From: Promethearchaeota archaeon
Lineage (GTDB): Archaea; Asgardarchaeota; Thorarchaeia; Thorarchaeales; Thorarchaeaceae
DNA: 6,269 nucleotides
Direction of reading: 5' to 3'
Assembly (NCBI GenBank): GCA_027031765.1
Contig: JALVPN010000045.1
Span: 1-6,269 of the forward strand
Every line of letters begins with the position of its first letter. The first letter of the stretch is position 1. The position numbers and the translations under genes were made by a program. Shown in pieces: positions 2,839-6,269 of this stretch. The notes below the pieces were generated by a model that was not told where the DNA came from, did not search any database, and saw only the letters and a program-made list of their open reading frames with translations.

Positions 2839-4998
2839 CTACCTGAAGCCGCCGGAAACACACGCGGAGTGACATGCGGAGTGACATGCGGAGTGGCACA
2901 CGCATGCGGAATGGCACGCAGAATGACATGCGGAGTGACACGCATCGTGCGACACACACTTGGACGTGTGTTCGAGGAGGGGTGCAAACGGTGCCGAGAT
3001 TGTCTTTGCGACACCGGACACTATCTCACCGACCGTAGATGTCACTTTCCCGACGACCTTGGCGGTGGTCGCAGCAACATCACCAACTATCTCTCCGGTG
3101 GTCGAGATGGTCCGTCCGGCAGCGTCGGCAATGCCAGAGAACCATTCGGGGAGCCTGATCTCACCACCGACAGCCCCCGGTTCGGTAATCGTCCTGTCGA
3201 TGTGGTCGTGGCCCCTGTGCAGGTACAGCCAGTACCATGCCCAGTCGTCACCGTACGTGCCGTCAAGGTAGTACTGTGTGCGTCCATCAATGGTGGGCCT
3301 GCCCTGTAGCTCGTCCCACGCACCATCAATACGCTCCCTGTGCCGGTCCATCGTTGCCTCGAAGTCAGCGTCCCATACCTTCCCCTGTACCCGTTCTGCC
3401 AGGGCATCTAGCATCTCGTCGACCCGTCCAGGGTCCAGCTGGTCGTCAACGATTGCGTTGACAAACATCTCCTCGTAGTACGTTAGGTCTTCGAACCTCA
3501 GACCGGTCACAGACAGGCGCAGTGGGTCTGTCGACAGTACACGCACGGCACCCTTCCTGACACATGACATCAGTATCATTGAGACAATCTTCTGGCGGGT
3601 CTCGTTGGCGAACAGTGCAGACTCTACTGGGTCGAGGTCGGCAGCCTCACCAGGCTGACCAAAGGTCTCGACTGTGATCTCAGGACTGATGTACACCGAC
3701 GTTGTGTCCTCGCTGGTCCAGTCTGCACCATACCGGCGGCGCACGAGCCTGTACCATGAGACGACAACCCCCAACAGCATCAGCGAGAGGCCACCGAAGA
3801 AGATGGCCCTGAACAACGGCGTGTCCACTGGTGACGGTGGCGCCTCTGAGATATAGACCGATACTGTGAACCTGAGCCAGTCCGTCATGTTCACGTCCGA
3901 CGCGGACACTGTGAACTCAATGTCCAGCACCTGTCCTGCGTCGCTTGCGAGGAGCTGGTACGTAAGGGTGGTCTGTCCGCCATCGGGGAGCGTGCCAATA
4001 TCGGTGACCGTCTCGCCAGAAACGAGGGTCAGGTTCGCCGGCAGCGCCATGTTCACCACAACGTCGTGTAGTGCAGAGTCACCGTCATTGTACACAGAGA
4101 GGAGCAGCCCGAACTCCTGCTGAGCGTATGCGTTCACCGTCCGCTGCACGTCATAGCCCAGATGGCCGGGCCGTACGAACGGCGCATAGAAGGCCCAGTC
4201 AGTGTACTGGAACACCAGGAACTGGAACTCTGTGTCGACCGGGGAGTGTTGCATGACCACGCTGAAGTACCTCGTGGTGGCCGAGGCATCGTGAGGATAT
4301 GCCAGCAGCTCCACGCTGTCGAACGGTGTGTGGGACGATGTGTCCAGATCCCAGACCCCCTGACGTGAGTCTGTGATGTAGTGCGCGTGGTCTGCGCCAG
4401 CAGGGAGGACACCACCCTCTGGAGTGATCCACGACGAGTTCAGTTCAATCGGGTACACCACCGTGACCCTCTCGAACTCAACTGGCACCGACCACCGCAC
4501 AGGGGCCCAGTGGAGGACACCGAGGTCACCGGCAGTGTCGTCGTAAGTATGTTCTATGACGCGGGAGGTGCTATAGTACCCGAACACGACGGTACCGGTC
4601 TCGCCGGCCTCAATCCTACGGGTCCAGTCGAGCTTGTAGCCGTCCGCGGTCACTGTCACCATCAGGTCCTCGCGCTCGCCGTCGACCTCCACATACGCCC
4701 GTCCCGTGTCGTACACCGTTGACTCCTCTATGCCGAAGAGGTCGAAGCCCCCGACTGACCCGGTCTGCACACTGATGGCTATCCAGTAGGTGACGTTTAC
4801 GCGTCCGTTCGGCAGGACGACGAGCAGCACTTCGATGCTGTCAAGGGTGAGTTCCAGGTCCTGACTGGGCTCTGCACACACTGCTGACAGCACGTGGGGT
4901 GATGCCTGTGTCGGGGCCGTTTGGAGGGACAGACACAACACTGTGGTCAGTACGAGCAACACAAGGACCGTGTACACTCCAGTCTGACGACGCCCCAT
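2839..4998 (-). CDS. ~719-aa type I membrane protein (signal peptide, DUF2207-like N-domain, Ig-like CARDB/DUF11-type domain, single TM helix, cytoplasmic domain) ending in a Cys/His-rich CHSA-repeat tail; candidate radical-SAM substrate
   Basis: The ORF track gives 2839..5103. ATG 4998 is preferred because SD GGGGGTGA lies 5 nt upstream and it begins a signal peptide (MGRRQTGVYTVLVLLVLTTVLCLSLQTAPTQA|S). LDSIEVLLVVLPNGRVNVTYWI resembles DUF2207 N-termini. FGLLLSVYNDGDSALHDVVVNMALPANLTLVSG...IGTLPDGGQTTLTY (~3850-4140) is Ig-like. The TM helix LFRAIFFGGLSLMLLGVVVSWY (~3751-3816) is followed by RLVRRR (positive-inside). LDPVESALF...IVSMILMSCVRKGAVRV resembles DUF2207 C-terminal regions. The CDS is firm; the domain names come from pattern recognition, not a search. 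Confidence 0.85.
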   Translation of the reverse strand: MGRRQTGVYTVLVLLVLTTVLCLSLQTAPTQASPHVLSAVCAEPSQDLELTLDSIEVLLVVLPNGRVNVTYWIAISVQTGSVGGFDLFGIEESTVYDTGRAYVEVDGEREDLMVTVTADGYKLDWTRRIEAGETGTVVFGYYSTSRVIEHTYDDTAGDLGVLHWAPVRWSVPVEFERVTVVYPIELNSSWITPEGGVLPAGADHAHYITDSRQGVWDLDTSSHTPFDSVELLAYPHDASATTRYFSVVMQHSPVDTEFQFLVFQYTDWAFYAPFVRPGHLGYDVQRTVNAYAQQEFGLLLSVYNDGDSALHDVVVNMALPANLTLVSGETVTDIGTLPDGGQTTLTYQLLASDAGQVLDIEFTVSASDVNMTDWLRFTVSVYISEAPPSPVDTPLFRAIFFGGLSLMLLGVVVSWYRLVRRRYGADWTSEDTTSVYISPEITVETFGQPGEAADLDPVESALFANETRQKIVSMILMSCVRKGAVRVLSTDPLRLSVTGLRFEDLTYYEEMFVNAIVDDQLDPGRVDEMLDALAERVQGKVWDADFEATMDRHRERIDGAWDELQGRPTIDGRTQYYLDGTYGDDWAWYWLYLHRGHDHIDRTITEPGAVGGEIRLPEWFSGIADAAGRTISTTGEIVGDVAATTAKVVGKVTSTVGEIVSGVAKTISAPFAPLLEHTSKCVSHDACHSACHSACHSACVCHSACHSACHSACVSGGFR
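2857..2940 (-). repeat. Coding tandem repeat: six 12-nt units encoding CHSA, arranged as two 42-nt blocks of (CHSA)3-CV
   Basis: Units read on the minus strand: tgtcactccgca (2929-2940), tgtcattctgcg (2917-2928), tgccattccgca (2905-2916), tgccactccgca (2887-2898), tgtcactccgca (2875-2886) and tgtcactccgcg (2863-2874). All differences fall at third codon positions. Confidence 0.95.
3007..3105 (-). repeat. Three degenerate 11-residue repeats (STTGEIVGDVA / ATTAKVVGKVT / STVGEIVSGVA) within the membrane protein
   Basis: Aligned by eye from the translation. GEIV recurs exactly 22 aa apart. A weaker fourth copy (SGIADAAGRTI) lies at 3106-3138. Confidence 0.7.
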
Positions 4999-5011
4999 CC
5001 TGCTCACCCCC
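4999..5011 (-). promoter_or_regulatory. Archaeal-type Shine-Dalgarno site (GGGGGTGA) for the membrane protein
   Basis: tcaccccc at 5004-5011 reads GGGGGTGA on the minus strand, with a 5-nt spacer to ATG 4998. It resembles the archaeal GGAGGTGA consensus. Confidence 0.65.
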
Positions 5012-5111
5012 AGCAGGTGTCCGGCCACTGTAGACGGTCGCCGGGAGGTGGCCGTAGGCACGCGACACGGGAAGTGCACACAGTGGTCACCCCTCTCATT
5101 CATGGGGCCAG

Positions 5112-5510
5112 TCAGTCGCCCCGCCGGGCACGGATTACCTCGGCCTGTGCAATGGTGAGGTTTGACAGGTCGGCCTTGGCAGCAGCCCAGGTCTCGAGGT
5201 CTGGAAAGTTCTGGACCATCCCGCTCCAGACAAGGTGGTACGCCCGCTTGAGGACAGTTCCCACATCCCCGCCCGTACCAACATACTCAAAGAAGCACTT
5301 GACAACGGCAGGCCTCTGTGCTGACATGTCCTCCGGCACCTCGGTCCCGAAGCCCGCAAAGGCCACGTCGAGTTCACGCAGGACATCTATCCGTTCGCGG
5401 ATCCCCGCTGCTATCACAGGGAGGTCGATGTCAAAGGCTGAGAACGTCATCACAAGCTTCCTGCCGCTGATCACACCGTAGGGCAGCCGTGTCTCGCCAG
5501 CACTCATCAC
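5112..5510 (-). CDS. Hypothetical protein, ~131-132 aa, no recognised family
   Basis: Clean ORF with globular-protein composition. GAGGAG lies upstream (ttgaggagagaaa-GTG-ATG), and the start is GTG 5510 or ATG 5507. It is co-oriented with the membrane protein. Confidence 0.75.
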   Translation of the reverse strand: MMSAGETRLPYGVISGRKLVMTFSAFDIDLPVIAAGIRERIDVLRELDVAFAGFGTEVPEDMSAQRPAVVKCFFEYVGTGGDVGTVLKRAYHLVWSGMVQNFPDLETWAAAKADLSNLTIAQAEVIRARRGD

Positions 5511-5615: not shown

Positions 5616-5660
5616 GCACGGCACAAGACCTATGACGGGACGTTGCAACGGGGTCACAAG

Positions 5661-6269
5661 ATGCACGACAGCTCGTATGACTATACTGTTGACGACCTGA
5701 GCTGGGTGCCGCGGTTCATGAGTGAGGTCAGGGACTACTTCTTTGCCAGAGAGGAGGACAACCTGCTCATCCTGCGGCCGAACCGTGTCATGCACCTCAA
5801 CGAGACTGCCACGCTGATGCTGAGGATGCTACTCGATGGTGCGTCCCCGGAAGAGGTCGTGCAGCACTTCGTTGAGCAGCGTGGTGCAGACAGGCAGCGT
5901 GTGGTCAACGACCTCATGGCCTTCGTGAGCGACCTGCGTGACATGACCTGTGGTGTGACCAACATATACGCGCTCAGGACCGCCCGGACTGCACCCTTCG
6001 GCTCCCAAGAGGTGAGGTACCCGGTGCTGAGCGAGATAGCAGTGACATACCGTTGCAACAACAGGTGCCTGTTCTGTTATGCGTACTCGCCCTACCGGGA
6101 GAGCGGTGAGATGACAACCGAGCAGGTGAAGCGCGTCATCGATATCATTGCGGACGACGCCCACGTACCGAGCCTCTCCTTCACCGGTGGCGAGCCCACA
6201 CTGCGGGACGACCTCCCCGAACTCATCCGCCACGCACGCACAAAGGGCCTGAGGCCCTTTGTGCGTGCG
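5661..6269 (+). CDS. PqqD/RRE-domain radical SAM protein (probable peptide/protein maturase), 3'-truncated; absent from the supplied ORF track
   Basis: Manual translation from ATG 5661 (GGGGT 6 nt upstream) stays open to the window end for 203 codons: MHDSSYDYTVDDLSWVPRFMSEVRDYFFAREEDNLLILRPNRVMHLNETATLMLRMLLDGASPEEVVQHFVEQRGADRQRVVNDLMAFVSDLRDM...PVLSEIAVTYRCNNRCLFCYAYSPYRESGEMTTEQVKRVIDIIADDAHVPSLSFTGGEPTLRDDLPELIRHARTKGL. The PqqD-like LNETA...LDG..EEV motif lies at ~5736-5945, CxxxCxxC (CNNRCLFC) at 6054-6077 and GGEP at 6186-6197. Confidence 0.93.
   Translation, partial: MHDSSYDYTVDDLSWVPRFMSEVRDYFFAREEDNLLILRPNRVMHLNETATLMLRMLLDGASPEEVVQHFVEQRGADRQRVVNDLMAFVSDLRDMTCGVTNIYALRTARTAPFGSQEVRYPVLSEIAVTYRCNNRCLFCYAYSPYRESGEMTTEQVKRVIDIIADDAHVPSLSFTGGEPTLRDDLPELIRHARTKGLRPFVRA
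6233..6269. other. Perfect 18-bp fold-back palindrome at the sequence end, probable assembly or library artefact
   Basis: cgcacgcacaaagggcct (6233-6250), then g, then aggccctttgtgcgtgcg (6252-6269). The right arm is the exact reverse complement of the left and ends at the last base of the window. Confidence 0.8.

Follow-up and report, generated by a model that had tools for sequence, protein, structure and literature searches.

Why does a large archaeal membrane protein end in a tandem array of Cys-His-Ser-Ala (CHSA) units, and does the radical S-adenosylmethionine (SAM) enzyme encoded beside it act on that array? The question is raised by the stretch of DNA analysed here (the window), which is the entire 6269-base contig C45 in a 2.95-Mb genome bin of 59% GC assigned to a Promethearchaeota archaeon, and the closest relatives of the window genes come from Thorarchaeota of the Asgard group. 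The repeat, the selection acting on it, its linkage to the enzyme gene and the domain set of the enzyme with its seven auxiliary cysteines are established here. The best overall explanation, to which we assign a probability of roughly 0.6, is that the tail of the membrane protein (the target) is modified by the docked neighbouring radical SAM enzyme.

A Cys/His tail conserved as a peptide

The repeat lies at the C-terminal end of the target, and the features that define it are as follows.

2839-5103, minus strand: whole open reading frame (ORF) of the target, 754 aa counted from the ATG at 5103
2842-2958, minus strand: Cys/His tail, aa 716-754, CVSHDA-(CHSA)3-CV-(CHSA)3-CVSGGFR, with 9 Cys and 7 His; proposed core-like substrate region
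2899-2940, minus strand: module 1, (CHSA)3-CV, from the codon table and a Tandem Repeats Finder period of 42
2857-2898, minus strand: module 2, (CHSA)3-CV, unlike module 1 at nine third positions and at nothing else
2941-2949, minus strand: junction, codons H-D-A, not bridged by independent contigs; the place of an additional CHSACVSHDA block in the orthologs

Read on the minus strand, K-CVSHDA (2961-2941) is followed by three CHSA units (2940-2905), CV (2904-2899), three further CHSA units (2898-2863), CV (2862-2857), SGGFR (2856-2842) and the TAG stop (2841-2839), in agreement with the preliminary description of two 14-residue (CHSA)3-CV modules that end in GG-F-R. That description had also stated that the six CHSA units vary only at third codon positions, and the codon table confirms it: four columns of the 12-nt unit are variable, each a third position with a synonymous transition (TGT/TGC, CAC/CAT, TCC/TCT and GCA/GCG), and a simple hypergeometric count puts the chance of all four variable columns out of 12 falling on third positions at 1/495. 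The nine sites at which the two 42-nt modules differ are likewise all third positions (P about 4.5e-6, hypergeometric). Tandem Repeats Finder returned a period of 12 nt (6.2 copies) and a period of 42 nt (2.0 copies, 83% matches). When all frames of the 2.95-Mb genome were searched, the CHSA tail was the sole frame with at least three consecutive CHxx units, and the remaining frames of the repeat, on both strands, encode peptides without repeats. Only 5 of the 14 third positions are identical between module 1 and module 2, and the DNA thus shows no trace of a recent duplication; the likeness of the modules is fully explained by the protein sequence. The two-tier duplication that had been proposed therefore stands as an architecture, but not as a recent event, given the 5/14 third positions and the presence of the layout in all 24 orthologs.

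Relatives of the target were sought in one genome per GTDB species and were found in at least 537 species; 80 loci were fetched. All 24 Thorarchaeota/Promethearchaeota orthologs with a readable tail share the pattern R/K-CVSHDA-CHSA-CVSHDA-(CHSA)3-CV-(CHSA)3-CVSGG(F/Y/G/V)R. Over the last 33 codons of 25 tails, third positions vary at 33 of 33 codons with a mean identity of 44%, and protein identity is 98.4%. Serine codons in orthologous tails swap between AGY and TCN, which needs two base changes via non-serine codons. The tail is the most conserved region of the target, the rest being about 60% identical among Thorarchaeota orthologs and about 35% identical to bacterial relatives. The codon comparison indicates that the CHSA tail is under strong purifying selection as a peptide and that its (CHSA)3-CV layout, present twice, is old and fixed. 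The earlier claim of a selected peptide as opposed to a slippage microsatellite is upheld by the variable third positions, the near-constant protein and the switches between serine codon families. A slippage origin, which was tried as a candidate, is ruled out by the synonymous-only differences and by the saturated third positions in orthologs. Neither tail loss nor non-synonymous decay, either of which had been named as a sign against selection, is seen in the orthologs, which retain the tail.

The wider family follows the same grammar. Among 1178 four-residue units from 161 bacterial and archaeal tails, Cys is present at position 1 in 100%, His at position 2 in 97.3%, Ser in 84% or Asp in 12% at the next position, and Ala at position 4 in 97.5%. 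These tails hold 4-18 Cys, and nearly all finish in C-V-S plus a short Gly, aromatic or basic end. Elements that break the phase of the repeat (C-V-H-D-A, C-V-W-S-A, C-A and C-V) are recurrent, and the punctuation of the repeat is therefore a family trait. Of the relatives that reach at least 110 residues beyond the conserved W..D...T motif, 56 of 66 have a Cys-repeat end. Truly tail-less orthologs were considered and set aside, the ten exceptions being read as stop, contig-end or frame effects; the DNA basis for this is P0002 (locus L014), in which an in-frame stop is followed by intact tail coding sequence. P0003 ends in LSLIHI, which we take to be adapter-derived sequence at a contig end, P0130, P0133 and P0136 carry the repeat in a shifted frame as judged by eye from the protein ends, and five have Arg/Pro-rich ends typical of wrong frames, again from protein ends only.

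Two observations on tail ends stand apart from this count. The stop in P0002, from a Thorarchaeota metagenome-assembled genome, is a TAG at L014:4371-4373, a position that is Glu in most orthologs and Gln, Ser, Asp or Asn in some; it reflects an error of sequencing, a nonsense mutation of recent date or a variant without the tail. The distant relatives P0177, P0195, P0205 and P0210 end in a Gly-rich run followed by CACACACA-GGGR; the Gly-rich part is presumably the kind of tail typical of DUF2207 proteins, and such hybrid ends hint at how Cys tails arose.

The copy in the window lacks ten residues (CHSACVSHDA) that all 24 orthologs hold. The run from which the genome probably comes is a hydrothermal vent metagenome, and independent contigs from its Logan assembly are identical to the window over 2600-2949 and 2941-3400, overlapping each other by just 9 bases. 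No Logan contig of this run spans 2941-2949, and a single 42-nt contig of low depth at the repeat, which has 3 mismatches, carries no information on the point; a further run, X3, yielded no match. Between the two copies of the extra block in the orthologs, 18-27 of 30 bases are shared. Because an independent contig reproduces 2600-2949 exactly, the six CHSA units in the window are confirmed, and the absent block may be a real deletion or an assembly collapse. The misassembly raised in the preliminary description is thus refuted for the six units, but the number of upstream CVSHDA-CHSA blocks is unconfirmed, as no contig bridges them. We give practically no credence to the repeat being a neutral low-complexity or slippage product, or an assembly artefact, without function. 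The unbridged junction with its missing ten-residue block and the variation from about 4 to 18 Cys in the wider family are what such an explanation could draw on, but it is contradicted by the synonymous-only differences in the window, by the saturated third positions and serine codon-family switches in 25 orthologs, by the contig identical over 2600-2949 and by the occurrence of the tail in at least 537 species representatives; it is refuted for the six units.

Linkage to a radical SAM enzyme and a predicted docking site

The enzyme gene is divergent from the target gene and runs into the end of the contig.

5643-6250, plus strand: PqqD(RRE)-radical SAM-SPASM enzyme, N-terminal 202 residues, where RRE is the RiPP recognition element (RiPP, ribosomally synthesised and post-translationally modified peptide)
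About 5769-5942, plus strand: enzyme RRE, inside ORF 5643-6269
6054-6077, plus strand: CxxxCxxC motif at the start of the radical SAM core
6251-6269, no strand: artefact of assembly by fold-back at the end of the contig, repeating the bases just before it in reverse complement
3658-3696, minus strand: juxtamembrane strand of the target, aa 470-482, V-Y-I-S-P-E-I-T-V-E-T-F-G, predicted RRE docking site

A domain search of ORF 5643-6269 returned a PqqD (RRE) domain and the beginning of a radical SAM core. Another contig of this genome, C170, overlaps the window at 6125-6250 and then carries the radical SAM gene onward, and the two contigs can therefore be joined; positions 2-955 of C170 add the remaining 318 residues of the enzyme, including the SPASM motif CX2CX5CX3C. 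The domains of the enzyme family are PqqD, Radical_SAM and SPASM, and the CxxxCxxC motif together with seven additional Cys is invariant in 41 aligned orthologs.

Orthologs of the enzyme were called with a family hidden Markov model at 460-550 bits. The enzyme gene adjoins the target gene in 20 of the 20 Thorarchaeota loci with upstream sequence, always divergently and with a conserved gene of 131-136 aa between the two. It also adjoins the target gene in 46 of 55 other loci, from Chloroflexota, Spirochaetota, Armatimonadota, Sumerlaeota, Caldisericales, Nitrososphaerota and Thermoproteota, where the usual order is target, radical SAM gene and a third gene, with gaps of a few bases. One Promethearchaeote has the order radical SAM gene, third gene, target. 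All five genomes without adjacency that were checked carry the radical SAM gene elsewhere, at 52-58% identity. That the pairing persists in three gene orders and over many phyla points to a functional tie rather than inherited synteny. No alternative small Cys-rich precursor gene was recurrent in the examined loci.

We modelled the complex of the enzyme and the target on the full-length ortholog pair from locus L007 and included SAM and three 4Fe-4S clusters. The L007 enzyme is 67-76% identical to the window enzyme, and the L007 tail is the same except for the extra CHSACVSHDA. The interface score ipSAE was 0.84, 0.84 and 0.83 in three runs, versus 0.00 for the best of three controls, and the mark applied to this score had been attained by 58 of 80 solved complexes and by 2 of 110 mismatched pairs. 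The partner had a pLDDT (predicted local distance difference test) of 71-73, and contact agreement between runs was at least 30%. Confident contacts connect RRE residues 40-57, 74-94 and 105-119 with residues 1-13 of the target fragment, which are aa 470-482 of the window protein (nt 3658-3696) and lie about 235 residues ahead of the tail; one helix of the globular domain that follows also adds to the contacts. In the juxtamembrane strand Y, P, I and T are each at least 90% conserved. The RRE of the enzyme is thus predicted by the model to dock on this strand.

Proposed modification of the tail and competing explanations

We propose that the tail would act like the core peptide of a RiPP but would remain on a full-size single-pass membrane protein. 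The RRE of the neighbouring enzyme would bind the Y-x-x-P-E-I-x-x-E-T-F strand inside the membrane, a flexible linker of about 75 residues would allow the tail to reach the active site, and the Cys residues would then be modified unit by unit. The likeliest product would be a small thioether ring that links each Cys sulfur with a carbon in a residue close by, and three registers come into question: Cys(i) to Ala(i+3), Cys(i) to Ser/Asp(i+2) and His(i-3) to Cys(i). Sequence cannot tell these apart. The conserved His residues would probably act after modification, for example in metal binding. The tail is probably the substrate of the enzyme, and, if it is, the chemistry is more likely than not that of a thioether. 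In a sister clade the tails contain no His (CVCACVSCACAC...ASGGGF), and the enzyme is retained there at 37% identity to that of Thorarchaeota; common to His-free and CHSA tails is a Cys flanked by Ala, Val or Ser. Retention of the enzyme in this clade favours Cys-centred chemistry over His cyclophanes, and the modification, judged from these sequences, would most likely consist of short-range thioethers. A more tentative extension, and a rather doubtful one, is that one Cys-to-Ala or Cys-His ring would form per four-residue unit and give a rigid ladder displaying His, with a bond type not yet described.

The closest tested analogue in logic is CrpC of Methanococcus voltae, an RRE-radical SAM-SPASM enzyme that forms ranthionine thioethers on the C-terminal Cys-repeat region of the whole protein CrpA (PMC13692751). 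CrpC holds three [4Fe-4S] clusters, the N-terminal part of CrpA helps engagement, and the CrpA repeats are 17 residues long with motifs that include C-A-G-M and C-A-V-D (PMC13692751). Both systems pair an enzyme of this domain set with a large Cys-rich protein, action on the tail being what we infer here. The two differ, however, in that a full-length Thorarchaeota ortholog of the enzyme scores 45 bits with TIGR04463 against a cut-off of 525; with this profile the maximum in the L007 genome is 47.5 bits, the L007 locus (G001:C3:144200-144730) gives 45 and the genome of the window gives 23. Moreover, CrpA has 17-residue repeats and no membrane location has been shown for it, whereas the present repeat has a four-residue unit with an invariant His on a single-pass carrier.

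Tandem Cxxx repeats encoded beside a radical SAM/SPASM gene are also described by TIGR04117 ("Syntroph_Cxxx") and PF27846 ("tSAM_targ_Cxxx_rpt"). The window tail scores 12.5 bits with TIGR04117 (E 0.12) and relatives score 17.8-19.5, against a cut-off of 50; the whole target protein has no match to either model at E <=0.01, and some relatives of the target carry precomputed PF27846 matches. Since the TIGR04117 model is 98 positions long it describes small proteins, whereas here the repeat ends a membrane protein of 719-754 aa. Both families were defined in silico, and a literature search yielded no tested chemistry for them. The ranthipeptide and sactipeptide systems (PapB/PapA of freyrasin, CteB/SCIFF, SkfB and AlbA) share with the present system the N-terminal RRE, the radical SAM core and the SPASM domain that binds two auxiliary clusters, as well as Cys-rich cores with thioethers over short spans. 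They differ in that their substrate is a leader-core peptide for cleavage and export, which the substrate here is not, and the scores of the enzyme against their cut-offs are 75.6/340 for PapB, 85/625 for StsB, 69/850 for AlbA and 69/300 for SkfB. The PapB thioether spans CxxxD/E (PMC10739248), a register that is missing here, where position +4 is Cys. The His-Xaa-Ser system (HxsA-D) resembles the present one in its His/Ser-rich repeat and radical SAM partner, and HxsC-type models are among the better NCBIfam matches, but it has H-x-S repeats and paired radical SAM enzymes, whereas here the repeat is C-H-S-A and there is one radical SAM gene. The cut-offs are missed as well (HxsC 73-76/268, HxsC4 82-106/500, and HxsB 33/370 for the window fragment). 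No publication on a CHSA-tail/radical SAM system was found in literature searches.

Three chemistries had been put forward in the preliminary description, namely Cys-to-carbon thioethers, His-to-Ala cyclophanes and an unmodified metal-binding tail. The thioether fits best, as an RRE-radical SAM-SPASM gene travels with the tail. An unmodified tail that binds metal or Fe-S through Cys and His, with the enzyme having another substrate or using the protein as a membrane dock, is in our view unlikely. Nine Cys and seven His within 39 residues at regular i/i+4 spacing would suit such a tail, the 97% conservation of His is not explained by thioether chemistry, and the model docks the juxtamembrane strand with the tail outside the active site. 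However, an unmodified tail leaves the enzyme linkage unexplained: the ortholog of the enzyme co-occurs with the tail over many phyla in three gene orders and is retained beside His-free tails, the loci offer no recurrent small Cys-rich precursor gene as an alternative substrate, and the Thorarchaeota 132-aa protein has a single, non-conserved Cys. Metal binding after modification is compatible with the thioether proposal.

Three-residue cyclophanes, in which the His ring would be joined to the Ala beta carbon within H-S-A and Cys would have another role, appear quite improbable. H-S-A formally fits the aromatic-X-X pattern, His and Ala are each about 97% conserved, and triceptide maturases also use the radical SAM-SPASM architecture found in the enzyme. 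Against this, Cys is the sole position that is 100% invariant, and no triceptide maturase family is found among the best 25 of 59-81 NCBIfam matches of full-length orthologs. Triceptides need an aromatic residue at motif position 1, and the His-free sister clade (CVCACVSCACAC...), which has none in its repeat, keeps the orthologous enzyme; this weakens the cyclophane as the preliminary description had framed it. There is also a small chance that the enzyme modifies the tail otherwise, for instance by linking Cys sulfur to the His imidazole, by epimerisation or by turning Cys into another residue. The enzyme falls in no curated family, its nearest solved relatives are functionally diverse, and an adjacent Cys-His pair is almost invariant in this clade; direct support is lacking, though, and thioethers are the product of the closest analogue with a tested activity on a Cys repeat carried by a protein (PMC13692751). 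Overlapping C-x3-C-H strings were also considered as heme c attachment sites and set aside, given the predicted cytoplasmic location of the tail and the retention of the enzyme in the His-free clade.

Several points weigh against tail modification by thioether formation as we propose it. The chemistry is wholly inference and the modification unobserved, and the enzyme lies below the curated cut-off of every thioether-forming family. Its nearest solved relatives by sequence are PqqE and SkfB (SkfB second-best, E 3e-19), and PqqE forms a C-C bond. Known thioether chemistry assigns no role to the His that is conserved at 97%, and the acceptor position of PapB (CxxxD) is absent, +4 being the next Cys. 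The complex model leaves the tail unplaced and not in the active site, and the tail is modelled as a helix at a low pLDDT of 40-50, which we do not take as evidence. The docking pass may in part reflect likeness to solved structures, because RRE-leader complexes are well represented among these, and the docking model was built with our own alignments and carried ligands, unlike the calibration of the tool. The topology is based on hydrophobicity and the positive-inside rule only.

The membrane carrier, its neighbours and the wider family

Ahead of the tail, the target and the gene directly upstream of it are laid out as follows.

4909-4986, minus strand: N-terminal hydrophobic signal/anchor segment, aa 40-65, from hydrophobicity
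3817-4917, minus strand: predicted extracellular domain, aa 63-429, with a DUF11 repeat at aa 326-402, from domain search and hydrophobicity
3745-3816, minus strand: transmembrane helix, aa 430-453, followed by RLVRRRY, from hydrophobicity
3187-3657, minus strand: conserved globular domain, aa about 483-639, with an invariant W..D..AT motif and pLDDT >90
2959-3186, minus strand: linker, aa about 640-715, Thr/Gly/Val/Ile-rich and poorly conserved, pLDDT 40-70
5112-5510, minus strand: 132-aa gene of unassigned fold, next upstream of the target and shared by 20 Thorarchaeota loci

The true start of the target is likely Met36 at 4998, which gives a protein of 719 aa, since orthologs measure 705-725 aa. 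Two hydrophobic segments, the second followed by RLVRRRY, place aa 454-754, tail included, in the cytoplasm by the positive-inside rule, with the ectodomain predicted to be outside. Searches of the target against Pfam and NCBIfam returned the DUF11 repeat and nothing more. The layout resembles that of DUF2207 (PF09972) proteins, which have an extracellular N-terminal domain, a membrane helix, a cytoplasmic part and a low-complexity end that finishes in GG plus an aromatic or basic residue, and some relatives of the target bear hybrid Gly-rich and CACACA tails. The window protein has no PF09972 match at E <=0.01; among relatives, P0020 passes the cut-off of 24.4 at 25.4, and P0021 falls below it at 19.8. 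We know of no Cys/His repeat or radical SAM partner as a feature of typical DUF2207 proteins.

The top fold matches of the globular domain, with two independent aligners, were GOLPH3/Vps74, lipid-binding Golgi proteins of eukaryotes. The match is weak (Z 6.1-6.2, TM about 0.3, with 158-168 residues aligned at an rmsd of 4.3-4.6), yet it stands out and is curious for an Asgard archaeon. A subgroup of targets is longer, at about 910-970 aa (loci L030, L031, L033, L036, L047, L048 and L052; P0008 and P0024), and comes from Sumerlaeota, Spirochaetota/Leptospirales and one unassigned metagenome assembly; some of these carry a zinc-ribbon-like insert within the cytoplasmic domain (alignment columns 101-130).

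The 132-aa protein has a mean column identity of 72% over 20 Thorarchaeota loci, and its gene was not found in bacterial loci. It has no Pfam or NCBIfam match, a protein atlas gave no usable match, and its model (pLDDT 77) gave no fold match; kinship with the bacterial third gene or with the target was rejected at hhalign probabilities below 1%. It is a possible partner of the system that is specific to this clade. For the bacterial third gene, Pfam and NCBIfam returned nothing but weak zinc-ribbon matches, the third gene of L033 being among these. In at least 18 Thorarchaeota loci and in the genome of the window (C170:1096-2235, locus L084; L007:1664-2791, minus strand, in the L007 locus), the radical SAM gene is followed on its own strand by a gene of the pyridoxal-phosphate type like D-serine dehydratase (Ala_racemase_N and D-ser_dehydrat domains). 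This gene was not seen in bacterial loci; its position may reflect no more than synteny, or the gene may belong to the system. Just downstream of the target, at 1773-2732 on the minus strand, a 319-aa protein has a C-terminal Arf/Roc-like small GTPase domain and an uncharacterised N-terminal half. This gene is downstream of the target in only 2 other Thorarchaeota loci and is therefore probably outside the tail/enzyme system. It is unrelated to the ORF downstream of the L007 target, and that ORF is in turn unrelated to the third genes of L001 and L002.

To our knowledge, RRE-bearing radical SAM/SPASM enzymes have been known almost only as makers of small secreted peptides, and the first tested whole-protein case that we know of is CrpC/CrpA, in 2026. 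We file the present system as an RRE-radical SAM-SPASM enzyme with a Cys-repeat target, in this case fused to a membrane protein. It ties this enzyme type to the cytoplasmic end of a single-pass membrane protein across over 500 species representatives that range from Asgard archaea to Chloroflexota and Spirochaetota, with a target sequence nearly constant across phyla. If the proposal is true, modification of the tail would be a widespread post-translational modification new to experiment, and rings formed per unit would yield a protein-borne, membrane-anchored metal-binding or redox element on a receptor-like protein that spans Asgard archaea and numerous phyla of bacteria. The proposal would also offer an initial way into the function of DUF2207-like membrane proteins with low-complexity tails.

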